Origin: an uncultured Anaerolineae bacterium
GTDB taxonomy: Bacteria > Chloroflexota > Anaerolineae > VGOG01
NCBI GenBank assembly: GCA_964625745.1
Contig: CAZVCJ010000004.1
Location: 1,289-65,288 of the forward strand
Direction of reading: 5' to 3'
Length of the DNA: 64,000 nucleotides
The translations under genes were made by a program, and so were the position numbers. Below the pieces are notes generated by a model. It did no database searches and was not told the origin of the DNA. It saw only the letters and a list, made by a program, of their open reading frames with translations. Below, in pieces: positions 31,245 through 56,261 of the stretch (positions are counted from its first letter, which is position 1; each line of letters starts with the position of its first letter).

Positions 31245-31281
31245 GCGAAGAGTTTCGTGTTGCGAGTTCCGGGTTTCGGGT

Positions 31282-31310
31282 TTGACAACTCCAGGTCTTG
31301 GCAGTATAAT
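31282..31310 (+). promoter_or_regulatory. consensus sigma70 promoter for tRNA-Val
   Basis: TTGACA (31282-31287), 17-nt spacer, TATAAT (31305-31310). The tRNA 5' end is 11 nt downstream of the -10. Confidence 0.65.
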
Positions 31311-31320
31311 CAGAACTGAG

Positions 31321-31394
31321 GGGCGAATAGCTCAGTTGGATAGAGCGCTTCCCTTACAAGGAAGAGGTCACAGGTTCAAGTCCTGTTTCGCCCA
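31321..31394 (+). tRNA. tRNA-Val (anticodon TAC)
   Basis: Hand-folded cloverleaf. Acceptor GGGCGAA/TTCGCCC, D arm GCTC-AGTTGGATA-GAGC, anticodon arm CTTCC-CTTACAA-GGAAG, T arm ACAGG-TTCAAGT-CCTGT, discriminator A. Followed by CC-T, so no complete encoded CCA. Confidence 0.9.
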
Positions 31395-31421
31395 CCTTGA
31401 TTGATAATGACGCTCAAAACG

Positions 31422-31484: not shown

Positions 31485-34400
31485 CTAGGTCTTGCGCCTC
31501 CAGATCAGCGCAACCGCGAGGGCGGCGAGCACAACCAGCGCTGCCAACCCCAGCCACGACGCCAGCAACTCTAGCCTGTTCACCGGCACGATGATGCCGC
31601 CAACGGGCACTGGGGGCTGAGGAGGCGGCTGCCCAGGGCCCCCGGGTTCTGTGATGACGCCATTGGCGACGAGGTCGTCATCACCATCACCGCCATCGGT
31701 GATGGTGATGGTAATGACATTGTCACCATCGTTGTCACCCATGGGGATCTGGTACCAATGGTTGGCCGGATTGGCGACCGTCGGGCCATACTTCCAATAC
31801 TGGGTATCGGGGGGCATGTCGTCTGGCAGGGAGATAGTGACCTCCACTGTCCCGCCGGGAGCAAGGCCCTCGATGGTGAAGTTGAAAAAGCCGTGGAGGA
31901 AATCCAGGCTTGGGGCATCAGCAGGGGATGGATTCCCCACGCCGGCGATGAAGGAGAAGTATCCCGCGCTGGCCTGTAGGGTGAAGCTCCCCGACCCTGT
32001 GCTGGTTGGCAGATCGTTGGCTGTATCATCACAAGCGTTGCCCACACCATCTCCATCGAGGTCTTCCTGGCCAGGGTTGGCATGGTTGGGACAGTTATCG
32101 CAGGCATCGCCTGCCTCATCATCATCGGCGTCAGCCTGATCTGGGTTCGACACCAATGGGCAGTTGTCCTCATCGTCGGGAATACTGTCGCCGTCACTAT
32201 CAGACAGAGCAACCTCCACGTAGAGTGGCCCCTCCAGGCGTATGTTCCCGACCAGGTCGTGCGCTTCTAGCCAGAGAGCGTACGTGCCTCCCGTGTCGGG
32301 CCGCAGTGTGTAAACCCATTCCTCTCCGACGCGGGCCGTCAGGTCACGGTAGGAGGCTGCATCCGGCGGATCCACGCGCACGTAGACTTCGTCTACGCCA
32401 CCGCCATCGCTCACCTGGCCAGCCAGGACCAGCGTCGGCGACAACTCATACATCATGGTGATGACGACGGTGGTGGTCAGCGCCGGCGGCACCACGTCCA
32501 GTTGATAGGTCAGACTGATCGGCTCGGGCGTGCGGTTGCCCACACCGTCCAGGCCGTAGATAGAGAGCGTAACCGATAGGCCGTCTGCGCCCTCAATCAA
32601 GGGTAGTGGGTAGTTCCACCTCCCTGCTGTGGAGAGGGCTGCGCTTTGCGGCGTCAGGCTCAGGCGGCTGCGGTTGTACGTGCCTTCGTTCAGTAGTGGA
32701 TTGAGGTCGCAGATATTCAGTTGCCACATGCCCTGGGATGCCTCTCCGATGAAGGTGCTGAGCGACGAGAAGGGCTGTGCAGGCCGGTCGAAGTATGGTT
32801 CTGTCGGATCGTCCTGGATGGGCGCGTGCAGCGGCCCGCTGGCGGCGTCGTCGAGCCACACGTCGTAGTTGGCGAAGCCGTAGGTCGCGCCACTGGGAGC
32901 GATCACCAGGGCGCGCGTCCCCGACGGAGAGACCAATTCAGCCACGATCTCCTCACGAGCGGGATGGGTGGCGTTGAAGCCCAGGTCCACGTCGCCGACG
33001 ATGAAGGCATCGGCCACGGTGAAGGTTCGGGTGATCTCACCCCCACCACAGTAGGTCGTGGCGGTGATGACGTCGGTGATGATGCCGGTAATGACGATGG
33101 GCGCGGTAGGAACGTCGTCGTAGAAGTGGGCTGTGTCGGTGGGAGCCTGGGTGCTGAGCAAGGTGGCTGCTGACTCACAGACGGTTTCCTCGTCTACCTC
33201 GCGGCAGACCTGCACCACGACGCTGCTATGGGTGTCGCTGATCGGGCCGGTGAGCAACTCTCCACCCGGGCCAATGAACTGCCCGTCCACAGCGGCTCGC
33301 GCTTCGTCATCCAGCGCCACTGTCGGCGGCGTAGCATCCACCACTACGACGTGCCACGGTATCGTCCAATCGCTGACGTGGTCGTAGCCGTCGGTGGCCC
33401 TGGCCCGAAGCTCGAACTCGTCACCGTCGCTCCCGACTACATTCCATTCGCACGTCCACTGTCCATCGTGGGGCATGGCGTCGGGGCAATTGAGCACGGT
33501 GACGCCGCCCAGCGGGTCGCGCACCTCCACTTCCACCAGCGGCACGCCCGATGGGTCGGAGGCGTAACCGCGCACGGTGTTGGCACCCGGCCCGACGACC
33601 AGCTTCGGGACCTCAATGCCCACGTGCTGTGGCGGGTCAATGTCCACGGCGTGGTCGGCCCACACCCACTCCAGCGGCGGCTGCGTTGGGATGCCGGTCG
33701 TCCCGCTGAAGGGATTGCGGGCATCGAACACCAGGCCGTCCAGTATCGCCCACTGCAAAAGCTGGCGGCAAACCTCCGGCGGCAGGCCGTCCACGTTGAC
33801 ACAGCGCTCGTAGCGCCAGTTGCTCTCTACCTCCACGACCCCGCTGAAAGTCACTGTCACGGTGTCGCCGGGGGCGACGGAACCTACGTTCAGTTGCCGG
33901 TACTCCATGTAGCCTTGATCCAGGCGGCTGCCGTCCGGCAGGCTCAGGGCGGAGTAGGCCAGGACGAACGCCTGGACGTCCAGGGCCTCGCTCGTGCCCC
34001 GGTTGGAAACGCGCAAGGTGTAGCTGATGACGTCGTCCTGGCCCACTGGCGGGTGGGTGTTGTCCAGAAAGGTGAACTGCTGGCTCTTGGGGCCAGATTC
34101 CTGGAAGAGGGTCTCCCACTGCCAGAAAAGGTCGTCGCCGAACAGGGCGTAGGTGGTGCCCAGCGGCTCCACAGTAAGCTCCACGCGCAGGTCGCTATCC
34201 ACGAAACCCTGGCTGGTGGGCGGTTCCTGCAAGGCCTCGGTGTACGGGCAGAGCAGTGGCCCCAGGCTGGGCCAGCGGTAGAAATTCGGCAGCACGAAGT
34301 TGCGCTGCGTCGCCGCTTGCACCGCGGCCAGCGGATTGACGGCCAGCACGCTGTTGAGCAGGTTCCGGTCCGGCATGGCCGACCACAGGCGCAGGGCGTC

Positions 34401-37400
34401 TTCCTCGCTCGCCGCCGCCAGCAGGCCAAGAGAGTTGGTCGCCGGATTGGAGATGTCCAGCAGGTCGAACGGCAAGTACAGGTCCGTGATGCCGTTGTTC
34501 CACTGGTACTGCTCAGCCGTAAGCCAGAGGCTCAAATCCCATCCTTCGGTGACCTCGTTCCACTCCCACAGGGCGGCCGTCTCGCTATCCACCACCCACA
34601 CCAGGTAGTCGGCCTGCATGGCCATGCTCTGGAGCGCGGCGACGGTCTGGCTCTGGCGCACCTGTTCAAACTCTGGCCATTCCGACGTCACCAGCTCAGG
34701 CAGGTTACCCGGCAGGTAGATGCCGGGCGCGGGGCCGCCATAGGGATTGAGGAGCTGCGTTGCACCGCCCGACCTGGTGTCCAGGTAGATGAACAGGTCG
34801 CCTTCGACGTCCCAGTTGGCGCCGACCCAGGCCAGGCGCAAGGCGTTGGCATCCCAGGTAGCGTAGAATTCCTGGTTCTCAGAGAGGGATGCGCCGGTCG
34901 GGGCTCGGTCGGCCACGCTGCGGCTCCGTCCCATTTGCGTGCAGCCGCTGTCCATCCAGCCGTGGTAGAGGAGGCCGGTTGGCAACTGCGTGCGGATGAG
35001 GTCTGGCGTGAGGGGCGCGTCCACGTAGACCGGCCCCTCGGTCTGCTCCTGCCAGTTGCCATAGATGTCCACCGAAACGACGTGGGCGTACACCTCATGC
35101 GCTTCACTGATGACCTGAGTATAGCTGTAGGCCGTCCCTGCGGGGACATAAAGCGTCCCTTCCGTGTTCGTCGGGCTGTCGGTCCAGCCAACCCGGTAGC
35201 CCGCGACGCCGCTGCCGTCGGTAGACAGCGTCCACTCGATGACCAGTTGGTTGCCGTCGGTGATGGTCTGGCGCGGCTCAACGGGGTGGTACGCGCCCAG
35301 GGCATCGAAGTAGCCCAGCGTGATGGTGACGGCCTCGGGTGCTTGCATATCGAAGAGCAGCGTAGCAGTGGTGGCGTTGGTGTGACTGGCGAAGTCGGTA
35401 GCTCTGGCGGTGACGTCGTAATTCACACCGTCCGGATCGGCGTCATCGATGGGCCAGGTGTAGCGCCAGACGGGGCTGATGGCTTCGCCCGTCAGCGAAG
35501 CGGCGCCCCAGCCACGGTCGTCGGGGTTCACGTCCACGCGCGCTACGCCGAAGTTGTCCGCAGCGTTACCAGAGAGGACGGCCGCTCCCTGGGCAGCGCG
35601 TCGGGCCGTGGTGATGACCGTGGTGTCGAAGGTGGGTGGTGCCGGGGGCTGCAGGTCCACCGTGACCGTGATGGGGTGCGTCGTGGTCTGCACCTGGCTT
35701 ATCCAGTCGGACACTTCAGAATTGAGAGTGTAGTAGCCTTCACCCAGCGGTGTGTAGGATGTAGTCCACGTCGTTTCGGTGACTGCGCCAGGATCGGGCG
35801 AGTCGGGCCAGCCAGTATCGTAGAACGGTGCGCTGTTGACGGTGACGGTGAGGGTCTGCAGATAGTTCTCCGCGTAGGCCTGGCCTTCTACGCCGAAGGC
35901 TGCGGTCGTCGAGAACGCCGTGCCGTTGCTGGGGGTGATGACGGCCGAGTCCAGCGATAGTGGTGGTGGCGGCGTCGGCGTGGGCGTCGGGGTGGGTGTC
36001 GCTGTTGGCTCCTGGGTTGGTGTGGGCGTCGGACCCCATTCCGACGGTGGCCACGGCGTCGGTGTGGGCGGTATCGGCACGTCTATTGGATAGGTCGCCG
36101 TGGTGCAATGGTCGTAGGCATCGCAGACGTAGTGAGCCAGAAACGGAAGCGCGCCGTTGACCTGGCAGGTGGCCGTGATTCGAACCAGCCGGTTGGTGTC
36201 GGTGGTCACCTCGCTATACCAGGATGAAATCTCGTGGAAGTAGGTGCGCTGCCAGGTATCCTCAGGGCAGGGACAGCCGATGAAAGTATCCTCGTCCAGG
36301 TTCAAGTCCTCGACATAACAGGTCACCTCGGTAGGGCCAAACGGTAGGCTTAGCCATTTGAGGCCAGGCTCGGCGCGCGGAGCGGCCGTGTCTACCATCC
36401 CGTTCCAGACCGCCGCCTTGCCACCGTGATAGGGCCAGGGCTGTACGTCATGGCTCTCCAACCTGAGCTCGTAGAAGCCCTCCAGATCCGGCATCTCGTA
36501 GGTCCAGGTGGTCGTAGTGATGCCCCAGCCAGATTCAGCCAGCGTGGCGCGTCCGCTGTGGTAGTAGTACCATGACTTCCAGAGCTCGGCGACCGGCTCG
36601 AATTTCACGTACAGGATGCCGACGCCGCTGTCGACCGGTCCCGGATCGGTGATGACGCCGGTCAGGGTCACGTCGTTGCAGGCGATGGCGTCGGTGTATG
36701 GCCCCATGTATTGCAGGTCGGCTACTGGTGGGGTGTTGTCCACCTCGAACACACCGTAGACCGCTTCTGGTAAGTAGTTGCCCGCGTCGTCCCTGGCGCG
36801 CATGTAGAGGGTGTACACGCCGGTGGGGTTGGGCAGCGCATTTCCTTCGTTGTCAAAGGCAGGCAGTGCGTAGTTCAGCTCCCATTGATGGGCTGAACCG
36901 TCCCCGGCAGAGAATCTGAGGCTCGTCCAGCCACCGCCGGCCCTGACGTGCGTCTCTTCCTCCGGGCTTATCCGCCGACGATGCTGGCCTTGCAGCAGCA
37001 CGTACAGGGATCCATTGGTGCTGTCTTCTACTGTACCTTTCACCCAGACCCACCAGCGTCCCTGGCTGTCGTCCCAGGCCTTGCCGCGCACTTCGGTCAC
37101 AGTGAGCTGCGGCGGGGTGCGATCAATGAACACACCGATGCTGGAGGGATTGCCCACGTTGTCGGCAGGATCGTTGGCGCGGACGCTCAGGGTGTGCCAC
37201 CCTTCCCCCACAGCACTGGTGTCCCAATCCCAGGTCCAGGTCTCTGCGCCGTCGGCTTCCTGCCACGCTCCACCATCCACCCTGACCTCCACCTTGGTCA
37301 CGTAGGTGTTGTCCCGCGCCTCGCCGCCGATGGGCAGCGTGCCGGTTTCGCCAATGTGCTGGTCGTCGGCCAGCGAGGTGATGTCTGCGGTAGGCAGGGT

Positions 37401-40400
37401 GCCGTCCACTATGACCTCGTCTTCGACCTGCTGCTCGCTTCTGCCCAGCGGCGTGGTGGTTTCGTGCAGCGCCGTCCGGTTGATGTGCAGGTGTTCCCCG
37501 TCGTGGGTTGTGCGCGACACCAGGCACTCAGTCACCGAGTCGTCCAACGCTTTGACCTTTTGGTACAGGGTCTTGATTTCCGAGGCTGAGAGCACCCCTG
37601 GCCATACGGCGAGTTCGTCCACCAGGCCGCGGAAGTAGTTGCCCCAACGGGCCTTGCCGATGCGCAGGGGGCCGCTGCCCCAGTAGTAGCGGGCGGTGGT
37701 GTCCTGAGCCACCTGCACGCCGTCGCGGTAGATAGTGCGCTGCCCGGTCCCGAAGTCGTAGCTACAGGCCCAGTGGTGCCAGTCGGTGTCGCTGTACTGA
37801 TTCGACGTGACCAGGTAGTTGGTCGTGTCAAAGGCGCAGATGAACCGGTTGTTGCTCCAGAAGCCGATGTATAAGTCCCTGTCGGAGCCGGCGCTTCCCT
37901 GGCTGACGATGTATTCGTCTCGGTTGGTCCACTCACGTTTGGCCCAGAAGGCGATGGTGAAGGAGGACCCAGCGATCGGCACGTCGGCGCCGGTGATGAC
38001 GTCGTCAGTCCCGTCGAACTTGACCGCGTTGTAGGCTATGCCCTCCTTGCCGGCCTGAGGGCATTGCCCGGCGCTGCACTCAGCGGCGCCGTAGCCGCTG
38101 CGGGCGGCGTTGTTGAAGGTTTCGGCTCCGCTGACCTCGTCGAAGGGATAGACCACCAGCGCGCCCAGGTAGTCGTCTACGACTTCGCCTTCCGACAGGG
38201 CGCGGGGATAGATGGTCAATTCGTCGAAGTAGCCCTTGAAGAACCGCTTGTCGTCGCAACCGTAGGTGTTGCAGGGTTGGACACCCACAGCCACACCCAT
38301 GATCACAGATTGTGTGTGCAAGTTCGAGGACGACCGCTCGCCAGTGGCACGCAGTTTGCCGTCCACGTAGAGGTGCTGGCCGCCCACGCCGCCGCCGAAG
38401 GTATTAGCCACGTGGTGCCATTGGCCATCGGCGAAGTTCTTGCCCGACGAGCAGATGACCTCAGACTCCGTGGTATTCGGGTTGCCCTCGCCTAGCTTCG
38501 CGCAGAGGTTGCCGTTGAGGAGATAAATGTCGCGGTCGTGGTCATCGTAGTTGAACGCAGCAGCGTCGCCTACAGAGTAGATGCCACAAGTGTCACATTC
38601 GGCCTTGAACCAGAAGGTAATGCCGTAGGAGGAAACAGACAAGCCCACGCCCCCTGCCCTGATCCAAGCACCTTCCTCAAAGGTTGCACCACCCGTTTCA
38701 TGGTGTCCCTCGAAATACACGGCGTTGCCACGCTTGCCTTCCTTTCCAGATGGTATGTAGTCTTGCCAACAGCTAGCGTCGTGGTCAAAGCCGGAACTGT
38801 CGGCGAAAGTGCAGGCCGTATCCCCTTCTTCGTCGAAGTGGAACAGGGCAGCGATGCGCGGCTCGGCGCAGGTCACGTCCAGGAGGTAGCTTTTGCCGGG
38901 TGCCTCTGTGCGCCCCCGCTCGCCGCGCAGCTCGCCGTTCATCCCCACCCCCTGGGAGTAGACGGTGTACTGGCCGTTCAAGCTCCAGGCCACCGCCCAG
39001 CCGCCGTTCACCGGATCGTTGCTCACGGCAGCCTCCCAGCCTGCTTGATCGGAGAGGTTGCCGACGGTGAATTCGTCCGGCGTGTTTGACCCAGCCAGGA
39101 TGCGCCCGCGCAGGGAACGGTTGCTGCCGCTCCGGCTGGTGTAGATGACGAGGGTTCGGCCGCTCAGGGGATCGTAAGCGATCCGGGGACTCCATTCGCT
39201 GGCTGCGCTGGCAGAGACGGCCTCTGGTTCGGTGGCTGACTGGCCGGAGATGTAGGCGGTGTAGATATCGCTGCCCCGCTCCCACACTGCCTGATAGCGG
39301 TCGCCAACCCAGGCCAGCTTGGGAAAGCTCACATTGCTCGCGGAATCCAGCGTCAGCACCCCACCGCTCTTGTCGCCGTTGGCGAGCACGTGGCGCACCT
39401 TGATTTGCTCGTCGCCTGAGCACTCTCGCATCCAGGCTACCAGGAAGTTATCGCCATCGCTGGCCACGGTAGCGCCCCAGGCCTCACATTCTCCACCCGC
39501 AGACTCTACCTGGTGCAAACTCAGCGAGCCCCAGTTGGATGTAGCGCTCCTCCACGTAACCCAATAGGTGCCGTAGTTGTTCTTATATGAATAGACCACC
39601 AGGCACCTGCCGCTGTCGTTACAGGCGATGGCTGGCTCCGACGTTGCGCTCCAGCCTGCTTCGGCGAACACGTCAACGCCGCTGTCCGTGATGCCAGCGG
39701 GCGAGACACGGTAGCCGCGCACACGGTAGTCTTCTCGACTCACGGCAGCGTAGGCCGTGTTCCAGCCGTTGACCGATACGGCAGCCAGGCTCAACGCCTT
39801 TGGATAGCTGGTAGCGTGGCTATCGGTCTGCCAGGGGTCCCAGGCCCAGACCGACGGCGTGTGCAACTGCGACTTCACGTCGGTGGTGAGGGTCACGGTC
39901 TGGTTGCCGGTGCCCGCCGGCACGGTGAGGTCGGTGTACAGCGACTGGGACTTGTCCTTGGCGATGTCGAAGGTCATCTCCAGGGGGAAGCCCGTCAGCG
40001 GGTCGGCCTCTAGCTCGGTCGTGCCGCGCACCCAGAGGGGGCTGCCTGTCTCCACGTTGTTCTGCACGGTGGTGGTGAAGGGGAAGGTCTGCGTGGGCTT
40101 CACGACTTTGTCTGGGTCCCCCACCTCGGTGTACACCCCGATGGGGTTGGTGTTCCAGATGTAGGGGTTAAAGAGATTGTTGTTGTAGCAGTCCCGCCGC
40201 TCGCTTTCGTCATCGAGCTTGCCGCACTCGGTGTGTAGCGTGCGCTCGAAGAGGTCGTCCATTCCGTCACTATCCGCGTCGGCGTTCAAGGGATCGCTGA
40301 AAATCCTGGTTTTCTCAGGATACCTGTAGTAGAAGTCCCAGCCCTCTGTTTCCGCCGCGTCGGTGATGCCGTCGCCGTCGGTGTCGGGGCGGTTGGGATC

Positions 40401-43400
40401 GCTGCCCAGGAACGCTTCCTCCTGGTCCGAGAGGCCATCGCCGTCGGTGTCGGCGTCGCGCGGGTCGAAGACGTAGCCCCCTTCGTCAAAGCGAATGGCC
40501 GCCATCTGCAACTCCCAGGCGTCGGACAGGCCATCGCCATCGGTATCCCACCTGGTGTCATCAGGGTCGTTTCCGCCGTAGTCCTGAGCCATCAACCCGT
40601 CGCCGTCGGCGTCTTTGAACTTGAGATCCGAGGCCCACCCACTCACCTGCACGAACTCATCCAGGGTATTGGGAAAAACGTCCATCACGATGTTGCTGCC
40701 CAGGTCGGCCGGGTCCGCTTCGCCCTCCAGACCTCTGTCCACGCAGACGACGACGGGTATCGCCCAGGAAATCACCCAGAGCACTGCCCAGCACTCGACG
40801 CCGGGGAGGGCGTAGCCAGTGGAGAGGATCAGGGGGACGGTGCGGTTGATACCCGCCTCGGAGACGGTGCTGATGGCCGAGAGATCGTCGTCGAACCAGC
40901 CCTTGTAAAAAGTGCGCCCCCAGGCCTCGTAGGCATCGCTGACATGCCAGGGGTTAACCCTATTCGTGTCCCCAAGGTGGGTGGACATGGATTTCTTTTT
41001 TGTGTCCAGCTCGTATTCGAAGCTGGTGGACCGGATTTGATCTTTGTCGTACTTCCAGATATACAGGGACGTCCAGTATTCCCGGGGAAGCTCGTGAATC
41101 ACCGTGCTGGTGATGGTGGTTTTGAACTCGAACTGAGCGCCGGGCACCATGCCCCGCTCTGGGTTGACCAGCCTGGAGTCCAGCGTGCCCATTTTGACCA
41201 GGCCGTCGTCTTCTTCATCTATCGCCAGCTCGAAGGAGAAGAACGTCTTGGCCACCGCCTCGGTGACCACGCCTGTGATGGTAAATCCCGCGCCCGTCAG
41301 CCACAGGAGAACGTCCACCAGCGTCATGATACCGACGATGATGGCGCCGATGACGGTCAGGGAGAACACAGCCAGCATGATGGTCACGATGGCCGCGGCG
41401 AAGGTTTGGGCCAGCAACATGGAGAGGCCCAGTCCCCGCCTCAGGCCTTCGTTTTTGCACAGGGCGTAGATGAAAATGCCGAAGACGATGCCCAGACCGG
41501 CGATCATGCCGATCAGCCCTGCGATCCTGGACATGCCGATGAACTGTGATGAGCTCTTGAGAACCTGGGTCGTCGCACTGAGCACGCTGACGCCGCTGTA
41601 GGTCAGGGCCCTGATCATCCCCACAACCATCCGAAGGGGCGAGAGGATCAGCATGTAGCCCAGAGCTATCCCGACAATGGCATGCACCGCCATTTGGGCT
41701 TCTGTATTGGTGCCCAGATACTCCCTGGTCAGGAAATACACGCCGACGGCAAGGCCGGCCAGTACGAGCATTGCGCCAGCGGTCACTGCTCCCTTCGCTC
41801 CCAACCAGCGGCCCACATTCTTCCACTTGGCGATCAGGTTCCCGAGAGTGTGGCCGAATGGTTGTATCGCCCCCCTCGCTCCGGCTTGCGAGCTTCTGAC
41901 GATCTGGGCCAGAAACTCCAAAGCCTTTGTGGAGTAGAGGAAGTTGCGCATGATCCACATCTGGACCACGGCCACCACTGCCTTCGCTCCGAACGTAGCC
42001 ATGACAGCAGCAATGGGCCGGTCGGAAGTCTGGTACTTCTGTGTCAACAGGGTGCCGCCGCTTTGAACGGCTACGTGGACGCCAGTATATAGTGTGAGAT
42101 AGTAGATCTGGCCCACGAACACCGCGCCGGTGCGCAGATCCTCAGGGTGCTCCTCGTCCACGTACTCGTCGGCGAAGTCCTTTTCGTAGCGATTCTCTAG
42201 CTCCTCCCAGTAGTCCTCGATGGGATAGGGCTCCCAGGCGTCGTCTCGGTAGCGATACGGCGCCCAGTTCATGCCGGCCACCGTCTGCACCTCTACGTCG
42301 TCCGGCTTGAGGTCTAGCTTGAGCTGATGGTTGTCATCGGACCAAGTGATGGTGGATGCGCCGACTCGATCCTCGTCCAGGTTCAGGCTGCGGAAGCGCT
42401 CTTCCCGGGCAAAGAGCAGCGTCGGGGCGACAGGCACGTGGGGGGTGAAGTGGTCGTCCAGGATCTTCACGGCTTCGGTCATGCCGACGGTCGCCACTGC
42501 TTCGTCCATGGTGGGGTAGGTGTCGGTGACGACGCTCATGATGTTGCCCGCAGTGTCACTGATGCGCCAGGTGCTGGTAACGGAAACGCCGCTATTGGTG
42601 GTGTGATTGAAGCGGCTGTAGATCTCGGTGATAGTGATGTCCAGCTCGTCGTTGCCCCTGATGCACTCGTCATCGGTGGGGTCGTCGGGATCCTTTTCGT
42701 CCCACTCCTCGCAGTCCCGGCCGGCCAGGAAGGTGAGTTCCAGGCCCCTGGTCAGGAACATGAGGGCGGAATCGTCGTCCAGGTCATCGTCCACGTCGGG
42801 GTCCTCGTACACGATGGCGAAATCGGTGCCGTGATCCTCGCGCACGGCCAGGCCGGTTAGTTTCCATTCATCGTCGTACGTGTGGACGATCTCTGCTTCG
42901 TTTTTCTCCTCGTAGCTTGTGCAGCGGCCATCCTCGTAACGCTCGCACACGTCCACCAGTGCCTGGACAACCCACACCAGGCGCACCTGGTGGGCGTTGC
43001 CCCACTGGTCGGCCGGCTGGTACAGCATCCTGCCCGAGAAGGCCACGCGTGCGCTGCCCTTTGGCTCGGTGACCAGGACCAGCGGGACGTACACGGCCTT
43101 GTCCGTGCCATCCTCGTTCAAATCCATGATGGAGATGCCGTAAGCTTCCAGGTCGTTCTGAGGCGGCAGGTTGTTGGGCGAGCCTGTGGTCTTGATCTCC
43201 AGCATGGGTATCAACTTGACGTCGCCGTTGTCGTTGGGCGAGTGGGAGGTGCTGTGGTCCAGGTCGTAGAAGGTCTTGCCGTCGGTGTCCTGCATCTGGC
43301 CCTGGTCGTCGCCCTGCGGCCAGTCCAGCACGTTGAAGGCGTACCACAGGTGGTCGGGATCCGTCGGGCGCAGTTGGAACTCTACAAAAGTAGGCAGGTC

Positions 43401-45191
43401 TTCGGTCAGGTTATCCACCACCAACTGGAAGGGTGCATCGGCGGTGTAGGTGGTGTCGCCCTTGTAATACGGCGAGAGGTCCAGATTGTCGGGCACGTCG
43501 TCGTTGTCGTTGTCGCGGTCGAAGAGGTCGGGTGTGCCGTCGTTGTCCATGTCCGGTGGGAGAGCGCTTTCGGAGGCCCGGCCGGTGTTCCACTCGCGCC
43601 CGTCGTCAAGGCCATCCCTGTTGGTATCAAGCTCCGTGGGATCGCTGTACCACATCTTATCTTTGTAGGAGAAGCCGTTGATCTCCTCAGGATCCTCGAT
43701 GCCGTCGCTGTCGGAGTCGTCAGAGTCATCGGCGGTGCCCAGGATACATTCTTCGAAGTCGGTCAGGCCATCTTCGTCGGTGTCGCCGGTGTCATCGGGG
43801 TCACATTCGGGGGCGGAGGATTCGTTGTTGTCGTTGTTGTTGGAGGCAAGAGCAGGGAGTTGGATATTGGATATTGGGTATTGTGTATTGTGTGAGGTGT
43901 CTAGCGGGTTGAGGTTGGGATTCCAGTTGGGCTGGGTTAAGAGGGCTTCGAGGTCGCGCTGCATGTCGCTTTCCTGCTGAAGGGCTTCCTGTTCCTGGGC
44001 GCGTGTCTGCTGCTGCTCGAAGAATGCCGCCACCCGCAGGCTCTGCAACAGCGGCGAGAAAATCAGCGAGACGATCACGGTCACGGCCAACGCGATGTAC
44101 AGGCGACTGGAGCGTTTGTGGATCACAAGCATGATGGACAGAATCAGCGAGAAGACCAGTGGGATTGCAAAGCGGAGATCAGGGATTAGAGATTGGAGGT
44201 TGGAGATTGGAGACTGGAGATTGGGGGCTGCGGATCCTGACACCCCAGATCCGAAATCCGCATTCCGAAATCCGAAATCAATTGTCGCTTCGGCGCGGCT
44301 TTCCTGATCGTCCGGACCCGGTGGGAACTGGAGGCGCAGGATCTGGCGCAGAGGCAGGCCATCCGCACTGATCCACAGTTCGCCCTCGCCCGTCATCTTC
44401 ACGTAAGTCTTGGGCAGGTCCAGACTAACGCCGGGTGGCAGCTCCCCCTTCTCGGTCAGGTACTTCTCCAATTGGTCGCGCACATAAGCGGCGTAACTCC
44501 GCCCATCAACGTCAAACGTGAAACGTGAAATGTGAGGCGTGAGGCGTGAGTCCACGTTTTCACGCTTCACGTTCTTGGCCGCTGCCAGGAATGCCATGAA
44601 GTCGCCCTGGGGCGCGAAGAGGCCCGTGAAGTTGGGGATTTCCTGCCAGGCCTGCGTGTCCTGGCGGGCGTAGGCCCGGTCGCCATCCACCTTGATTTCC
44701 ACGCCGCTGCCGGGGTCCACCACGCTGCCGCCCTGCGACCACAAGGTCAGGTGCAGTTGCCGCTCGTGGAGGTCGGTTTCACCTTCCAGGTGCAGGGCTT
44801 CTTCTTTGCTCGTGCGGCCCACGTTGAGGATGGTGGGCTTGGGGATCACGGTCTGCTTGATGTCGGCCGTGAAGTGGTAGGCACCGGCCTGCTGGGCGCG
44901 CCGCCAGGCGGCCTGCACTGCGTGCTCTGGCGATGCCGCCGCAGTCACGGATGGCGCCTGGGCATACACCTGCTCGCTGGGAGCGCCCAGATCGGTGCTC
45001 TCCACAACCGATGCGAGCCGTGCCAGTGCGTCGTGAGCTCGCTCTCGGATTCGGTTTGCTCCTCCTTGCAGGGACGCGGCGATTGTGGGCAGTTCGCTGA
45101 GAACAGCCATCTGAGCGGCTAGTACCGCAACGCCAAGCACTACGGCGCACAATGCCAGAATCAGGCGATTGGGTGAGGATGGGTGCTTCAA
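31485..45191 (-). CDS. giant (4568 aa) membrane-embedded surface protein with TSP3-like Ca-binding repeats, LamG x2, Ig-like domains, a P-domain and a C-terminal TM anchor
   Basis: TTG start with GGAGG 10 nt upstream. Landmarks: N-terminal signal anchor; TM pair ~44045-44165; Asp-rich DxDxDG repeats ~43480-43830, ~40245-40612 and ~32030-32205; 5-7 TM helices ~41270-42010; two LamG/ConA-like domains ~37560-38850; PT linker ~35955-36075; proprotein-convertase P-domain-like ~32655-33040; C-terminus ...PVNRLELLASWLGLAALVVLAALAVALIWRRKT. Confidence 0.9.
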   Translation of the reverse strand: MKHPSSPNRLILALCAVVLGVAVLAAQMAVLSELPTIAASLQGGANRIRERAHDALARLASVVESTDLGAPSEQVYAQAPSVTAAASPEHAVQAAWRRAQQAGAYHFTADIKQTVIPKPTILNVGRTSKEEALHLEGETDLHERQLHLTLWSQGGSVVDPGSGVEIKVDGDRAYARQDTQAWQEIPNFTGLFAPQGDFMAFLAAAKNVKRENVDSRLTPHISRFTFDVDGRSYAAYVRDQLEKYLTEKGELPPGVSLDLPKTYVKMTGEGELWISADGLPLRQILRLQFPPGPDDQESRAEATIDFGFRNADFGSGVSGSAAPNLQSPISNLQSLIPDLRFAIPLVFSLILSIMLVIHKRSSRLYIALAVTVIVSLIFSPLLQSLRVAAFFEQQQTRAQEQEALQQESDMQRDLEALLTQPNWNPNLNPLDTSHNTQYPISNIQLPALASNNNDNNESSAPECDPDDTGDTDEDGLTDFEECILGTADDSDDSDSDGIEDPEEINGFSYKDKMWYSDPTELDTNRDGLDDGREWNTGRASESALPPDMDNDGTPDLFDRDNDNDDVPDNLDLSPYYKGDTTYTADAPFQLVVDNLTEDLPTFVEFQLRPTDPDHLWYAFNVLDWPQGDDQGQMQDTDGKTFYDLDHSTSHSPNDNGDVKLIPMLEIKTTGSPNNLPPQNDLEAYGISIMDLNEDGTDKAVYVPLVLVTEPKGSARVAFSGRMLYQPADQWGNAHQVRLVWVVQALVDVCERYEDGRCTSYEEKNEAEIVHTYDDEWKLTGLAVREDHGTDFAIVYEDPDVDDDLDDDSALMFLTRGLELTFLAGRDCEEWDEKDPDDPTDDECIRGNDELDITITEIYSRFNHTTNSGVSVTSTWRISDTAGNIMSVVTDTYPTMDEAVATVGMTEAVKILDDHFTPHVPVAPTLLFAREERFRSLNLDEDRVGASTITWSDDNHQLKLDLKPDDVEVQTVAGMNWAPYRYRDDAWEPYPIEDYWEELENRYEKDFADEYVDEEHPEDLRTGAVFVGQIYYLTLYTGVHVAVQSGGTLLTQKYQTSDRPIAAVMATFGAKAVVAVVQMWIMRNFLYSTKALEFLAQIVRSSQAGARGAIQPFGHTLGNLIAKWKNVGRWLGAKGAVTAGAMLVLAGLAVGVYFLTREYLGTNTEAQMAVHAIVGIALGYMLILSPLRMVVGMIRALTYSGVSVLSATTQVLKSSSQFIGMSRIAGLIGMIAGLGIVFGIFIYALCKNEGLRRGLGLSMLLAQTFAAAIVTIMLAVFSLTVIGAIIVGIMTLVDVLLWLTGAGFTITGVVTEAVAKTFFSFELAIDEEDDGLVKMGTLDSRLVNPERGMVPGAQFEFKTTITSTVIHELPREYWTSLYIWKYDKDQIRSTSFEYELDTKKKSMSTHLGDTNRVNPWHVSDAYEAWGRTFYKGWFDDDLSAISTVSEAGINRTVPLILSTGYALPGVECWAVLWVISWAIPVVVCVDRGLEGEADPADLGSNIVMDVFPNTLDEFVQVSGWASDLKFKDADGDGLMAQDYGGNDPDDTRWDTDGDGLSDAWELQMAAIRFDEGGYVFDPRDADTDGDGLSDQEEAFLGSDPNRPDTDGDGITDAAETEGWDFYYRYPEKTRIFSDPLNADADSDGMDDLFERTLHTECGKLDDESERRDCYNNNLFNPYIWNTNPIGVYTEVGDPDKVVKPTQTFPFTTTVQNNVETGSPLWVRGTTELEADPLTGFPLEMTFDIAKDKSQSLYTDLTVPAGTGNQTVTLTTDVKSQLHTPSVWAWDPWQTDSHATSYPKALSLAAVSVNGWNTAYAAVSREDYRVRGYRVSPAGITDSGVDVFAEAGWSATSEPAIACNDSGRCLVVYSYKNNYGTYWVTWRSATSNWGSLSLHQVESAGGECEAWGATVASDGDNFLVAWMRECSGDEQIKVRHVLANGDKSGGVLTLDSASNVSFPKLAWVGDRYQAVWERGSDIYTAYISGQSATEPEAVSASAASEWSPRIAYDPLSGRTLVIYTSRSGSNRSLRGRILAGSNTPDEFTVGNLSDQAGWEAAVSNDPVNGGWAVAWSLNGQYTVYSQGVGMNGELRGERGRTEAPGKSYLLDVTCAEPRIAALFHFDEEGDTACTFADSSGFDHDASCWQDYIPSGKEGKRGNAVYFEGHHETGGATFEEGAWIRAGGVGLSVSSYGITFWFKAECDTCGIYSVGDAAAFNYDDHDRDIYLLNGNLCAKLGEGNPNTTESEVICSSGKNFADGQWHHVANTFGGGVGGQHLYVDGKLRATGERSSSNLHTQSVIMGVAVGVQPCNTYGCDDKRFFKGYFDELTIYPRALSEGEVVDDYLGALVVYPFDEVSGAETFNNAARSGYGAAECSAGQCPQAGKEGIAYNAVKFDGTDDVITGADVPIAGSSFTIAFWAKREWTNRDEYIVSQGSAGSDRDLYIGFWSNNRFICAFDTTNYLVTSNQYSDTDWHHWACSYDFGTGQRTIYRDGVQVAQDTTARYYWGSGPLRIGKARWGNYFRGLVDELAVWPGVLSASEIKTLYQKVKALDDSVTECLVSRTTHDGEHLHINRTALHETTTPLGRSEQQVEDEVIVDGTLPTADITSLADDQHIGETGTLPIGGEARDNTYVTKVEVRVDGGAWQEADGAETWTWDWDTSAVGEGWHTLSVRANDPADNVGNPSSIGVFIDRTPPQLTVTEVRGKAWDDSQGRWWVWVKGTVEDSTNGSLYVLLQGQHRRRISPEEETHVRAGGGWTSLRFSAGDGSAHQWELNYALPAFDNEGNALPNPTGVYTLYMRARDDAGNYLPEAVYGVFEVDNTPPVADLQYMGPYTDAIACNDVTLTGVITDPGPVDSGVGILYVKFEPVAELWKSWYYYHSGRATLAESGWGITTTTWTYEMPDLEGFYELRLESHDVQPWPYHGGKAAVWNGMVDTAAPRAEPGLKWLSLPFGPTEVTCYVEDLNLDEDTFIGCPCPEDTWQRTYFHEISSWYSEVTTDTNRLVRITATCQVNGALPFLAHYVCDAYDHCTTATYPIDVPIPPTPTPWPPSEWGPTPTPTQEPTATPTPTPTPTPPPPLSLDSAVITPSNGTAFSTTAAFGVEGQAYAENYLQTLTVTVNSAPFYDTGWPDSPDPGAVTETTWTTSYTPLGEGYYTLNSEVSDWISQVQTTTHPITVTVDLQPPAPPTFDTTVITTARRAAQGAAVLSGNAADNFGVARVDVNPDDRGWGAASLTGEAISPVWRYTWPIDDADPDGVNYDVTARATDFASHTNATTATLLFDMQAPEAVTITLGYFDALGAYHPVEPRQTITDGNQLVIEWTLSTDGSGVAGYRVGWTDSPTNTEGTLYVPAGTAYSYTQVISEAHEVYAHVVSVDIYGNWQEQTEGPVYVDAPLTPDLIRTQLPTGLLYHGWMDSGCTQMGRSRSVADRAPTGASLSENQEFYATWDANALRLAWVGANWDVEGDLFIYLDTRSGGATQLLNPYGGPAPGIYLPGNLPELVTSEWPEFEQVRQSQTVAALQSMAMQADYLVWVVDSETAALWEWNEVTEGWDLSLWLTAEQYQWNNGITDLYLPFDLLDISNPATNSLGLLAAASEEDALRLWSAMPDRNLLNSVLAVNPLAAVQAATQRNFVLPNFYRWPSLGPLLCPYTEALQEPPTSQGFVDSDLRVELTVEPLGTTYALFGDDLFWQWETLFQESGPKSQQFTFLDNTHPPVGQDDVISYTLRVSNRGTSEALDVQAFVLAYSALSLPDGSRLDQGYMEYRQLNVGSVAPGDTVTVTFSGVVEVESNWRYERCVNVDGLPPEVCRQLLQWAILDGLVFDARNPFSGTTGIPTQPPLEWVWADHAVDIDPPQHVGIEVPKLVVGPGANTVRGYASDPSGVPLVEVEVRDPLGGVTVLNCPDAMPHDGQWTCEWNVVGSDGDEFELRARATDGYDHVSDWTIPWHVVVVDATPPTVALDDEARAAVDGQFIGPGGELLTGPISDTHSSVVVQVCREVDEETVCESAATLLSTQAPTDTAHFYDDVPTAPIVITGIITDVITATTYCGGGEITRTFTVADAFIVGDVDLGFNATHPAREEIVAELVSPSGTRALVIAPSGATYGFANYDVWLDDAASGPLHAPIQDDPTEPYFDRPAQPFSSLSTFIGEASQGMWQLNICDLNPLLNEGTYNRSRLSLTPQSAALSTAGRWNYPLPLIEGADGLSVTLSIYGLDGVGNRTPEPISLTYQLDVVPPALTTTVVITMMYELSPTLVLAGQVSDGGGVDEVYVRVDPPDAASYRDLTARVGEEWVYTLRPDTGGTYALWLEAHDLVGNIRLEGPLYVEVALSDSDGDSIPDDEDNCPLVSNPDQADADDDEAGDACDNCPNHANPGQEDLDGDGVGNACDDTANDLPTSTGSGSFTLQASAGYFSFIAGVGNPSPADAPSLDFLHGFFNFTIEGLAPGGTVEVTISLPDDMPPDTQYWKYGPTVANPANHWYQIPMGDNDGDNVITITITDGGDGDDDLVANGVITEPGGPGQPPPQPPVPVGGIIVPVNRLELLASWLGLAALVVLAALAVALIWRRKT
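43860..43894. repeat. period-7 array (TTGGATA type, 5 units) in-frame in the giant ORF
   Basis: Units: ttggata ttggata ttgggta ttgtgta ttgtgtg. Peptide: HNTQYPISNIQ. Confidence 0.9.
44172..44283. repeat. period-7 array of 16 units (TTGGAGA type switching to ATCCGAA type) in-frame in the giant ORF
   Basis: Units counted directly. Peptide: [33 protein letters not shown]. Confidence 0.9.
44507..44576. repeat. period-7 array (AAACGTG type, inverting to CACGTTT type) in-frame in the giant ORF
   Basis: Units: aaacgtg aaacgtg aaatgtg aggcgtg aggcgtg agtccac gttttca cgcttca cgttctt. Confidence 0.9.
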
Positions 45192-45475
45192 AAAAAGTGT
45201 GCCTCCTTCGATTCAAGGCCAACCAGCGATGGAGCATGTCACGCAGACCTGGGGAAAACGAGCAAGCGGCAACCATCAGGGTATATTGACCCTGATCTGT
45301 TGCCACCTGGGTGTTGCAGAACATCGTTCGAACGTTGAGCCAGCATCGCAGGGGGGGTATGCCATCTGGTACTCCGGTACTGCGGATGAACAAAGGGCCA
45401 TTCTGAAATTCTGTGCCAGTTTATCACAGTCGCGTCAAATGTCAAGTTTACGTATTCATTCACTCCAATGCCCCG

Positions 45476-47661: not shown

Positions 47662-49113
47662 TCAGTCAGGCTTCCACCGCAACTTCGGTTGCCTGGCCGC
47701 TCTGACCTCGTCCAGCCGCGTGACGGGGGTAGTTTGGGGCGCTCCGTGCAAGATGTCGGGGTTCTCCTGGGCTTCCCTGGCGATGTTGAGCATGGCCTCG
47801 GCGAAGGCGTCCAGGGTCTCCTTGCTCTCGGTCTCGGTAGGCTCGATCATCAGGGCCTCAGGCACGATGAGGGGGAAGTAGACGGTGGGCGGGTGAAAAC
47901 CGTAGTCCATCAGCCGCTTGGCTATGTCCAGCGTGTGGACGTCGGGGGCCTGCGACAAGGGTCCCGATAGCACGAACTCGTGCATGCAGGTGCGGTCGTA
48001 GGGCAGCGGGTAAACCTTCCTGAGCCTGGCCAGGAGGTAGTTGGCGGCCAACACCGCGTCCTCGCTGACCTGCCTCAAGCCCTCGGCTCCCAGCATCCTG
48101 ATGTAGGTGTAGGCCTTGATGAACACGCCAAAGTTGCCGTAGAAGGCCTTGACCCGGCCGATGGAGGCTTCGGGCATCTCCAGGTGGTAGGTTGGATATT
48201 GGATATTGGAGATTGTAGATTGGACTGCGATTTGGCCAGGCAAGTACTTTGCCAGTCGCTCTGAGGCGCCGACGGGGCCGGAGCCGGGTCCGCCCCCGCC
48301 GTGGGGGGTGGAGAAGGTCTTGTGCAGATTGTAGTGCAGCACGTCGAAGCCCAGGTCGCCGGGCCTGGCGATGCCCAACAGGGCGTTCATGTTGGCTCCG
48401 TCGCCATACATCAGGCCGCCGCACTGGTGGACGATTTCACAGACCTCCAGCACGTTCTCCTCGAACAGGCCCAGGGTGTTGGGGTTGGTCAGCATCAGGC
48501 CGACCACCGTGTCGTCGCAGTGGGCCTTCAGTTCCTCCAGGTGCACGTTGCCCCGCTGGTCGGATTTGATCTCCACCACCTGGTAGCCGCTCATGGCGGA
48601 GGAGGCGGGGTTGGTGCCGTGAGCCGAGTCGGGTATGAGGACTTTGGTGCGCTTTGTATCACCTCGCTCCTCGTGGTAAGCTCGCATCACCAGGATACCG
48701 GTGAACTCGCCGTGGGCCCCGGCCGCGGGCTGCAGGCTCACCGCTGCGAAGCCACCGATCCCCTTCAGGTACTCCTGCAGCTCGTACATGAGCCTCAGGT
48801 TGCCCTGGACAGTGCAGTGATCCTGATAGGGATGGGTGCGGGTGAAGCCGGGGAGCTTCGCTGCCTCCTCGTTAATCTTAGGATTATATTTCATGGTACA
48901 GGAGCCCAGCGGGTAGAAGCCGGTGTCCACGGCGTGGTTGAGCTGGGAGAGGTGGACGTAGTGGCGCATCAGGTCAATCTCGCTGACCTCAGGCAGCGGG
49001 AGGTCTTTCCGCAACAGCTCTTGCGGCAGCTTGGTCGCAGGCACATCGAGTTCTGGCAGGAAAACGGCCTTCCGGCCTGGCGAGCTGATCTCGAAAATCA
49101 AATGCTCGGTCAT
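47662..49113 (-). CDS. gcvPB: glycine dehydrogenase (decarboxylating) subunit 2
   Basis: 483 aa. [16 protein letters not shown] (PLP lysine), [23 protein letters not shown]. Confidence 0.95.
48185..48226. repeat. period-7 array (TTGGATA type, ~6 units) in-frame in gcvPB
   Basis: Units: tggtagg ttggata ttggata ttggaga ttgtaga ttggact. Peptide: [13 protein letters not shown]. Confidence 0.9.
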
Positions 49114-54493: not shown

Positions 54494-54994
54494 CTACCGC
54501 AGGATCAGCGGCAGGTACAGGTAGTAGCCCCAAAGCACATTCACCGGCGTCGTGCGCTGGGTGGTCGTGCCATCCCCGAGTTGACCAGACGAGTTACGGC
54601 CCCAGCACTTGCCCCCGCCGCCGGTCAGGGCGCAGGTGTGATACCAACCCGCCGCAATCGCGGCCACACCGCTCGCCAGGCCGCTCACGTTCACGGGCGT
54701 CGTGCGCCGGGTGGTCGTGCCGTCGCCGAGTTGACCATAGGTGTTGTCGCCCCAGCACTTGACCCCGCCGCCGCTGGTGAGGGCGCAGGTGTGATACCCA
54801 CCCCCCGCAATCGCGGTGGCGTTGGCGGCGATGGCCAACGGCAGTCCGCCAAGTGGCGCGCCTAGAGGGTTTCGGCCAGGAGAAGTGGCAGCCAGGCCTG
54901 GGACCTGGGCGTGGACGCTGCCGGCCAGCAGGGTCAGCAACACCCATACACCGATCAAACTGTTCAGACGCTTGAAATGACAAATGGGTTTCAT
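54494..54994 (-). CDS. small secreted RCC1-repeat protein
   Basis: 166 aa with a signal peptide. Two repeats of [31 protein letters not shown]. Ends [11 protein letters not shown]. Confidence 0.7.
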
Positions 54995-56177: not shown

Positions 56178-56261
56178 CTGGAAGTTGGAAGCTGGAAAGT
56201 GGAAATTGGAGAACCAATCTCCAATATCCAATATCCAATATCTAACCTCCAGCTTCTCAGT
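56178..56261. repeat. period-7 array of 12 units with a strand switch at ~56213 (NTGGAAR x5, then TCCAATA-type x7): a long imperfect palindrome at a gene junction
   Basis: Units: ctggaag ttggaag ctggaaa gtggaaa ttggaga accaatc tccaata tccaata tccaata tctaacc tccagct tctcagt. Followed by tcagtgtt x2, which encodes the last residues of ORF 56257-57411. Confidence 0.9.

Follow-up and report, generated by a model that had tools for sequence, protein, structure and literature searches.

A 64,000-nucleotide stretch of DNA from an uncultured Anaerolineae bacterium of the Chloroflexota (GenBank assembly GCA_964625745.1, contig CAZVCJ010000004.1, positions 1,289 to 65,288), referred to here as the window, harbors a giant open reading frame (ORF) of 4,568 amino acids (aa) plus a stop codon, which begins at a TTG start and occupies 31485..45191 on the minus strand. 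Its neighbors are purH, hisD, argS and a tRNA-Val gene on one side and an alcohol dehydrogenase gene and glycine-cleavage genes on the other. The tRNA-Val(TAC) gene (31321-31396, plus strand) lies directly 3' of the giant stop codon on the opposite strand and is preceded by a perfect TTGACA-17-TATAAT promoter match (region 31282-31396, plus strand). The giant protein combines a conserved base, which includes an internal membrane block, with a long mosaic arm, and it is one of a large family that has not been described before, in which nearly every named member is from the Chloroflexota. Features of the gene are given below as residue numbers followed by window coordinates, all of them on the minus strand.

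The giant ORF is a real gene. An earlier note on this DNA had described it as a single continuous frame, and shuffles, codon periodicity, a ribosome-binding site, domain matches and an intact orthologue bear this out. The longest stop-free stretch amounts to 4,575 codons, as compared with a mean of 268 and a maximum of 406 in 100 shuffles of the whole window, and the base composition gives a probability of about 1e-57 for the absence of a stop over 4,568 codons. GC content at codon positions 1/2/3 is 62/46/80%, which is a clear coding signature, and the overall GC content is in line with the surrounding DNA. A Shine-Dalgarno sequence read directly from the DNA, GAAGGAGG, is located 10 nt 5' of the TTG start (45202..45209). 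The 285-nt gap between the giant gene and its upstream gene contains a promoter-like site, TTGACA, 16 nt and (TG)TAAACT (45418..45445), identified solely by its agreement with the consensus (10/12 matches). A scan of one genome per GTDB species with this single protein found two loci and yielded an intact orthologue ORF of 4,775 aa in an Ardenticatenaceae metagenome-assembled genome (JAOSJS010000001.1, a 10.4-Mb contig; locus L003, 8267..22594), which aligns with aa 73-4333 at 65.4% identity in a single collinear high-scoring segment pair.

The domain inventory of the protein starts with a basic N-terminus followed by a hydrophobic segment (aa 1-28; 45108..45191; Kyte-Doolittle hydropathy (KD) 2.62), which by its sequence may be a Sec signal peptide or a signal anchor. 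It had previously been taken for a signal anchor; the hydrophobic segment (aa 10-28 by hydropathy) stands, and in relatives such as P0001 and P0013, which have typical signal peptides, this part looks like an ordinary Sec signal peptide. The next domain, E1 (aa 88-307; 44271..44930), was modeled with AlphaFold2 (AF2) from 21 sequences at a mean predicted local distance difference test (pLDDT) of 81, with a core above 90. A Foldseek comparison against the PDB matched this model to LprG of M. tuberculosis (3mh9_C, E = 1.7e-6, probability 1.0, TM-score 0.51 normalized to LprG), and the further matches to phosphatidylinositol mannoside (PIM)-bound LprG, DUF1329, EPDR1 and VioE all represent the same LolA/LprG-like half-barrel. 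Sequence searches of E1 against the PDB found nothing, and by its predicted fold E1 is a member of the LolA/LprG-like superfamily. It is followed by a transmembrane (TM) hairpin (aa 339-382; 44046..44177), whose two helices (aa 339-357 and 364-382; KD 2.47 and 2.44) are joined by the basic loop HKRSSR, are kept in relatives and appear as helices in the AF2 model as well as by hydropathy, in agreement with the earlier proposal of a hairpin. The first cluster of thrombospondin type 3 (TSP3)-like DxDxDG calcium-binding repeats, likewise proposed before, comes next (aa 470-572; 43476..43784), with motifs at 470, 492, 522, 547 and 560. This segment contains four or five such repeats and has a weak TSP3_bac match. 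Nine strict D-x-[DN]-x-[DN]-G motifs are found in the protein, at aa 470, 492, 522, 547, 1549, 1581, 1603, 1638 and 4377, and the TSP3_bac model (PF18884) scores 39.3 bits against a gathering cut-off of 25, which makes it a bacterial TSP3 repeat protein. Signal peptide, LolA-like E1, TM hairpin and TSP3 repeats are all present here ahead of the family-defining module. In the N-terminal alignment (A2) the mean column identity is 46%, and relatives are collinear from about aa 80.

The long uncharacterized region announced by the earlier note corresponds to E2 (aa 580-1050; 42042..43454), an acidic, beta-rich domain (AF2 pLDDT about 80-90). Conservation within the protein is highest here, with 47 columns at least 90% identical in about 240 relatives, including the pair C749/C757. 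No match to E2 was found in Pfam, NCBIfam, PDB sequences, PDB structures or BFVD (structural cut-off E <= 1e-3), and the best PDB-sequence profile match for E2 and the membrane block, AopB, is not significant (E = 0.19). Likeness of E2 and the block to gasdermin, pleurotolysin and EFF-1 was considered and rejected as long-beta-hairpin noise (E >= 0.2, TM-score <= 0.15). The part upstream of the membrane block had been described as an adhesin-like array; it is instead the most conserved part of the protein, composed of a LolA/LprG-like domain and a beta-rich domain with no solved-structure match, and together with the membrane block it forms the base that defines the family. A separate observation concerns a conserved Asp-Pro bond at aa 797-798 (window about 42798-42803) within the motif I-Y-E-D-P, where Asp is present in 215/238 and Pro in 226/238 sequences; it can be speculated that this bond is a site of self-cleavage.

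The polytopic membrane block (aa 1060-1309; 41265..42014) was delimited by hydropathy, AF2 and a comparison of 170 relatives. Its helices are a (1060-1081, marginal), b (1136-1158), c (1163-1197), d (1223-1246), e (1254-1276) and f (1280-1298), and all six segments exceed the hydropathy threshold in this protein. AF2 places helices at 1060-1084, 1136-1158, 1163-1197, 1203-1246, 1254-1276 and 1280-1298. Strong hydrophobicity (KD >1.6) is seen for helices b, d, e and f in 92-100% of the 170 relatives, for helix c in 75% and for a seventh candidate after helix f (segment g) in only 11%. The 5-7 helices proposed earlier hold as a description, with five strongly hydrophobic ones and a marginal one across the family. 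Residue Asp1293, inside helix f, is Asp in 162/170 relatives (95%), and F1240 and G1282 are likewise near-invariant. The block is followed by a post-membrane beta domain (aa 1310-1525; 40617..41264; AF2 pLDDT about 80), in which the pair Cys1467/Cys1483 is kept in 154/156 and 152/155 sequences, respectively, and which carries the motif D-V-F-P-x-T-L-D-x-F at aa 1504-1513. The two cysteines (window about 40743-40793) enclose a hydrophobic, Pro-rich loop of variable length among relatives, and one may speculate that this loop dips into the membrane.

Downstream of the post-membrane domain, the modules that had been read from the translation were recovered in their order. The second TSP3 cluster (aa 1536-1660; 40212..40586; TSP3_bac E = 5.6e-10, best stretch 1581-1602) has four canonical repeats, with motifs at aa 1549, 1581, 1603 and 1638. 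It is followed by an uncharacterized region (aa 1661-2235; 38487..40211) with no Pfam, NCBIfam or PDB match, conserved in about 50-70% of the full-length relatives, by which we mean the 97 proteins of at least 3,000 aa among the 150 best representatives listed for the family. Two LamG/ConA-like domains (aa about 2242-2545; 37557..38468) are covered by Laminin_G_3 in two stretches (E = 9.9e-41), with a Laminin_G_2 match at 2242-2326, and are followed by Ig-like modules of the Big_7, Big_3_3 and Big_13 types (aa 2600-2702; 37086..37394; Big_7 E = 2.4e-15), a region kept in 97% of the full-length relatives. The Pro/Thr-rich linker (aa 3039-3077; 35961..36077) is read from the translation, and a DUF11/CARDB-like Ig-fold module (aa 3711-3790; 33822..34061) reaches E = 1.3e-4 against DUF11 as an isolated segment, which is below the Pfam cut-off. 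Further on are a P-domain-like module (aa 4067-4173; 32673..32993; PF01483, 26.5 bits against a cut-off of 21), with no Peptidase_S8 match anywhere in the giant ORF in the Pfam scan, as expected from the earlier description of a P-domain lacking an attached protease, and the final, third TSP3 cluster (aa 4331-4391; 32019..32201; motif at 4377), which has a TSP_3 match at E = 9e-4 and a local 59-bit match to the TSP3 part of MtsC. Given that no internal repeats were found in the protein at BLAST E <= 1e-3, the arm is a mosaic and not a repeat array.

The C-terminal end consists of a choice-of-anchor U domain (aa 4427-4520; 31632..31913; NF041766, E = 2.9e-30, 105 bits against a cut-off of 32) that directly precedes a TM helix with the basic tail WRRKT (aa 4537-4568; 31488..31583; KD 2.56), which makes the protein a member of NF041766 and matches the hydrophobic anchor and basic tail noted before. 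No known sorting-signal model matches this tail. The LPXTG_anchor model (TIGR01167) reaches 11.3 bits against a cut-off of 15.9, over the TM and basic part only and with no LPXTG in the tail, and the YLP box (NF050076) is not present in the tail, which ends ...LIWRRKT. Among the 97 full-length relatives, 35 carry a YLP-type motif, [YFWH][LFIVMY]P[LIVMFAG][LIVMF], within their last 18 residues, with 0.0024 expected per window of this kind; the consensus is hydrophobic-Y-L-P-(L/V)-(V/I), for which NCBIfam has an existing model, NF050076, 'YLP-box putative sorting motif'. A TM helix with an Arg/Lys cluster at the C-terminus, as here, is found in 8/97. The 65%-identical orthologue ends ...HRLWLPLLRRGDG, and its tail RLWLPLLRR has no hidden Markov model match. 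The choice-of-anchor U domain of the present protein would fit a picture of interchangeable anchors.

The extent of the family was assessed with a profile (A1) of the aa 580-1525 module, comprising E2, the TM block and the post-membrane domain, in an exhaustive search of representatives at 50% identity. It recovered at least 1,606 clusters when matches up to E <= 1e-3 were counted, and 922 clusters at E <= 1e-30. The architecture is therefore not the oddity of a single gene that it had been taken for, as it is common to these clusters. A word-indexed search with aa 600-1520 found 114 proteins, all collinear with aa 60-1900. Named matches are all Chloroflexota but two, one labelled Gracilibacteria and one just 'bacterium', and they represent Anaerolineae, Promineifilaceae, Caldilineaceae, Ardenticatenaceae, Chloroflexaceae, Herpetosiphonaceae and Thermoflexales. 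Most full-length members have a length of 3,000-6,500 aa (the longest has 6,469 aa), and in most of those listed the module begins near residue 500-600. Coverage in the 97 full-length relatives is 92-100% for aa 100-1700, 50-97% for aa 1700-4000 and 0-13% for the last 270 aa, and modules of the PKD, PA14, cadherin-like, Big_x, DUF11 and LamG types were seen in the arms of the relatives that were sampled. At least two paralogues, the L003 ORF and P0015, are encoded in the Ardenticatenaceae genome. The family-defining region aa 580-1525 has no Pfam, NCBIfam or solved-structure match, and no description of the family was found in the literature searched. The idea that a core family of 1,500 aa has here been fused to an adhesin was rejected, given that the search of representatives and three homologous loci (L001 to L003) show relatives to be full-length giants. 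Giant genes, often for surface proteins, have been reported as enriched in Anaerolineae and Chloroflexia (PMC10608941). In one relative, P0055, on a 6-kb metagenomic contig, E2 is immediately followed by RHS repeats and a weak match to the teneurin YD-shell (aa 974-1088), at the usual place of the membrane block.

Considering these features together, the giant protein is most likely a calcium-stiffened, adhesin-like surface protein rooted in the cytoplasmic membrane and built on a base module that is almost confined to Chloroflexota. The integrity of the gene, its domain inventory, the size and conservation pattern of the family and the fold of E1 are established by the analysis; we infer the surface exposure and adhesive role of the protein from the domain inventory and from the combination of a fast-evolving arm with a conserved base. 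Surface exposure is suggested by the signal peptide, the TSP3 repeats on both sides of the block, the Cys pairs and the K/R-rich loops; an adhesive role is suggested by the LamG, Big_7, P-domain and DUF11 modules of this protein and the adhesin-type modules of its relatives. The LolA/LprG-like fold of E1, the alternative C-terminal ends, the reported enrichment of giant genes in Anaerolineae and Chloroflexia, and a search for conserved gene neighbors that found none, as the neighborhoods differ between the window, L001 and L002, lend further support. According to this model, the Sec signal peptide would start export, and the first approximately 1,650 residues would form a conserved base, composed of the LolA/LprG-like domain, the TM hairpin, the TSP3 repeats, E2, five robust helices and one marginal helix and the disulfide-bearing beta domain, which would be kept at the outer face of the membrane by seven to nine helices. 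The remaining approximately 2,900 residues would act as a calcium-stiffened mosaic arm of TSP3, lectin-like LamG, Ig-like and P-domain modules, projecting through the envelope to bind carbohydrate or protein ligands and serving adhesion, aggregation, or the cohesion of filaments or sheaths. Its far end may be tied back to the membrane, or passed to a sorting enzyme, via the choice-of-anchor U domain and the TM/basic tail, whereas roughly one in three of the full-length relatives that were examined has the YLP-box putative sorting motif at this end instead.

There are several points that weigh against this model. E2, the most conserved part of the protein, has no recognizable fold; AF2 confidence is below 50 for block helices a-c; and helix a is strongly hydrophobic in only 11% of the 170 relatives and marginal in 89%, so that the even number of passes needed to leave both sides of the block outside, with five robust helices and a marginal one, is not secure. 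The homologous gene is also split into three to five ORFs in two metagenomic contigs: at L001 (10001-23633) it falls into three consecutive ORFs on the same strand (e.g., 1411 + 2309 + 810 aa), the first break being a frameshift and the second an in-frame stop, and at L002 (10001-22977) into at least five, also consecutive and on the same strand. These splits may reflect sequencing or assembly error, or real decay. Lastly, the 95%-conserved Asp of helix f and a domain of lipid-binding type suggest that the base may be more than an anchor.

This last point leads to an alternative that we regard as unlikely and yet worth weighing, namely that the base is an active membrane device, which would handle lipids or glycolipids, or couple an ion gradient to the movement or deployment of the arm, for example in a surface adhesin of a gliding or adhesion machinery in filamentous Chloroflexota. 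The Foldseek matches of E1 to LprG, including its PIM-bound form, with a probability of 1.0, are in keeping with such a role, as are the conservation of D1293, F1240 and G1282, the much higher conservation of the base than of the arm, and the origin of most named matches, whose lineages are filamentous. However, the base shows no similarity to transporters, stators (MotA/ExbB/TolQ) or lipid exporters, the best match being PomA (8zyv_F) at E = 1.5, it has no Pfam or NCBIfam matches, its short cytoplasmic loops contain no recognizable nucleotide-binding or signaling domain, there are no conserved partner genes, and a buried Asp may equally serve helix packing or oligomerization. A bolder form, in which a membrane-tethered E1, E2 and a five- or six-helix bundle with its near-invariant Asp would constitute a new kind of envelope machine, to date nearly restricted to Chloroflexota, that inserts, energizes or moves the adhesin arm, appears still less probable; if it were true, the family would be a candidate surface component for gliding, filament cohesion or envelope organization in filamentous Chloroflexota.

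The model of a membrane-rooted surface protein places large extracytoplasmic regions on both sides of the block, as the earlier note had done. Domains of extracytoplasmic type are indeed found on both sides, with TSP3 repeats and conserved Cys pairs upstream and TSP3, LamG, Ig-like and P-domain modules downstream; the topology itself is our best inference from the positive-inside rule and the Cys pairs. Across the 170 relatives the mean charges are +7.6/-4.4 for the a-b loop and +2.8/-1.2 for the c-d loop, with a net positive charge in 78%; loops b-c and d-e are neutral, and a Cys pair is found just past helix f in 123/170, which would make the a-b and c-d loops cytoplasmic and put the chain past helix f outside. 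E2 would be outside too, given the signal peptide and two-helix hairpin ahead of it, the TSP3 calcium repeats at its start and its conserved Cys pair. With E2 and the chain after helix f both outside, the marginal helix a has to provide a sixth crossing; both sides would likewise stay outside in a variant with four passes (b, d, e, f). The main rival on topology is an odd number of passes (helices b-f), which would make the E2 part (aa 383-1059) cytoplasmic and expose nothing but the C-terminal arm, with no large extracytoplasmic regions on both sides of the block. The contrast in hydropathy between helix a and helices b to f among the 170 relatives points in this direction, and the K/R-rich a-b region would then just continue a cytoplasmic E2. 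Nevertheless, the signal peptide and the hairpin with its basic HKRSSR loop would put E2 outside, this E2 part begins with four or five DxDxDG calcium repeats, has an Asp plus Glu content of 22% and carries the near-invariant pair C749/C757, and AF2 predicts a helix at aa 1060-1084, and we therefore hold the odd-pass arrangement to be improbable.

It is highly improbable that the protein is a teneurin- or Rhs-like scaffold for a contact-dependent or polymorphic toxin, with a conserved N-terminal membrane or trafficking module and variable C-terminal cargo. Teneurins have a type-II-like orientation, which the giant protein would share, its N-terminus is conserved and its C-terminus variable, and P0055 has RHS repeats and the weak YD-shell match right after E2. 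On the other hand, no domain of the toxin, Rhs, PAAR or immunity-like kind was found in the giant ORF, the orthologue and the sampled relatives end in modules of the Ig, PKD, CARDB or LamG type and in sorting tags, the tRNA-Val gene lies downstream where no small immunity-like gene is found, and P0055 is a single case on a 6-kb contig; the polymorphic-toxin idea was rejected, as no toxin domain was found in this ORF or in sampled relatives. An artefact, whether a chance open frame, a misassembled chimera or read-through of a decaying pseudogene, is scarcely credible. Long spurious ORFs do arise in GC-rich DNA (e.g., 910 aa on the opposite strand) and the L001 and L002 loci are broken, but the stop-free stretch is far beyond the shuffle maximum, third-position GC is high, significant domain matches run along the whole ORF, 97 of the 150 best listed representatives reach at least 3,000 aa, and two distant genomes both keep the frame collinear over more than 4,300 codons, so that neither chance, nor chimerism, nor a recent loss of function can account for it.

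Short tandem arrays are a further feature of the giant gene. The three heptamer arrays of the earlier note are 7-nt DNA tandem arrays, located with Tandem Repeats Finder at 44508-44550, 44249-44279 and 44184-44224. The first (44508..44550; AACGTGA x4.0 and GTGAGGC x2.7) lies in the E1 coding sequence at aa 214-228, and the other two (ATCCGAA x4.4 and GATTGGA x5.9, respectively) lie just before the TM hairpin, where one of them translates as IDFGFRNADFG (44184..44279). A further pair, TTGGATA x3.4 and TATTGTG x3.1, was found past the hairpin (aa 433-444; 43860..43893). Other 7-nt arrays of the window are at 2388-2410, 21405-21425, 31252-31283, 48192-48224, 49874-49959, 52330-52405, 52747-52798, 56179-56251 and 58650-58678. 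The arrays have 3-8 copies of several units and are intergenic or in frame within coding sequence (e.g., the gcvP ORF, 49110-50501), and they resemble the short tandemly repeated repetitive (STRR) heptamers of cyanobacteria. Gain or loss of a 7-nt unit would shift the reading frame. Phase variation was rejected, given that the arrays are imperfect (83-100% matches), occur window-wide and are also present inside housekeeping genes; they would thus seem to be a general repeat habit of the genome, and not a switch that is peculiar to the giant gene. At the E1 site of the array of this gene, P0015 and P0089 have peptides like SPLPRGER...GRGAGGEG and SPLRGGAGGG, just before the conserved F-T-R-Y-T-F, which suggests that this site is an insertion hot spot. 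Elsewhere in the window, at 19204-19385, a 43-nt unit, GGGGCGAGGGGGCAAGTTCCCTTTCCCTCGCAGGGAAAGGGTT, is repeated 4.2 times at 93% identity.

Three other proteins of the window have hydrophobic, signal-peptide-like N-termini together with a YLP-type C-terminal motif. They are a subtilase with a fervidolysin-like prodomain (9153-10961, minus strand), which ends ...SYLPLLFKNYSSD, a Reg_prop propeller protein (11134-12516, minus strand), which ends ...YYLYVPLVMKHYSPSP, and a 166-aa RCC1-repeat protein (54494-54994, minus strand), which scores 14.9 bits against the NF050076 cut-off of 15. Upstream of the orthologous giant gene, a 262-aa ORF (L003 559-1347, plus strand) has the YLP-like tail ...HLYVPVIIRGNH. 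A 1,106-aa ORF (50957-54277, minus strand) combines serine hydroxymethyltransferase (aa 95-433) with a GcvT aminomethyltransferase domain (aa 702-979), and two 7-nt arrays in its linker encode RETSSVKRETSNVKRQTS and KSQISKLETKISKLETRNSKLET. This ORF may be a genuine fusion, or it may consist of two genes after loss of the stop that separated them.

Little is understood of the cell envelope of Chloroflexota, although these bacteria abound in soils, sediments, wastewater flocs and microbial mats. The most conserved approximately 950 residues of the giant protein, including the membrane block, are covered by neither a Pfam nor an NCBIfam model, have no relative of solved structure and are not described in the literature searched, and we contend that the value of this work lies more in the large unannotated family and its base module than in the single gene. 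The base module gives annotators a handle on thousands of fragments labelled 'hypothetical' or 'thrombospondin type 3 repeat', and the family would show that giant surface proteins can be rooted without the secretion and sorting signals that were checked (RTX/type I secretion system (T1SS) and LPXTG). It also singles out testable elements, such as Asp1293, the hydrophobic Cys1467-Cys1483 loop and the LolA-like domain, and the alternative C-terminal ends (TM/basic tail or YLP box) would amount to a natural experiment on surface-protein sorting in Chloroflexota.

Among known systems, the protein resembles the giant calcium-dependent adhesins (the RTX/T1SS proteins LapA, SiiE and MpIBP, as well as Bap/Ebh) in being a multi-thousand-residue predicted surface protein with calcium-binding repeats, Ig-like spacers and lectin-like (LamG/ConA) ligand-binding modules. 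Unlike them, it is rooted by a conserved N-terminal base with seven to nine predicted membrane helices, and its gene stands alone among housekeeping genes with no dedicated secretion system. RTX repeats, a T1SS signal, an LPXTG/sortase signal and near-identical tandem repeats were not found, with no RTX-type family among Pfam matches at E <= 0.1, and on these grounds the earlier statement that this is not the usual giant-adhesin layout holds. Giant proteins of Omnitrophota exceed 30,000 aa and have TM segments among predicted extracellular domains; they also contain SecA-DEAD domains, as well as domains of peptidase or carbohydrate-active type (West-Roberts et al., 2023, bioRxiv 10.1101/2023.11.21.568195). 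The interspersion of TM segments with extracellular domains is thus not unprecedented, although the present protein has no SecA-DEAD/preprotein-binding, peptidase or carbohydrate-active domains in Pfam and no sequence relationship to them.

Other likenesses are confined to parts of the protein. E1 shares the half-barrel fold of the lipid-binding proteins LprG, LppX and LolA, but differs from them in having no sequence-level similarity, in not being a lipoprotein and in being one domain of a giant polytopic protein. Proteins of the EsaA/YueB/Pip type have one TM segment, a large ectodomain and then a five-helix bundle. This layout is analogous to that of the E2 part, with a large ectodomain followed by about five helices; however, no NCBIfam or Pfam match to the YhgE/Pip or EsaA models was obtained, E2 is beta-rich and not an elongated helical stalk, and a 3,200-residue arm follows the helices. 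The Myxococcus envelope proteins CglD and MtsC match locally, in their thrombospondin type 3 repeat regions only, and the scores of 30.7 bits against a cut-off of 400 (CglD, NF033765) and 59.1 against 350 (MtsC, NF047638) do not make the giant protein a member of either family. The subtilisin-like proprotein convertases share the P-domain, and the giant ORF, having no Peptidase_S8 domain, is not one of them. The NF041766 and NF050076 models cover only the last approximately 100 residues and the last 11, respectively, and not the base of 1,500 residues. The giant protein is thus a member of known families at the domain level only, through TSP3_bac, Laminin_G_3, Big_7, the P-domain and choice-of-anchor U, and beyond these it belongs to the family defined here.

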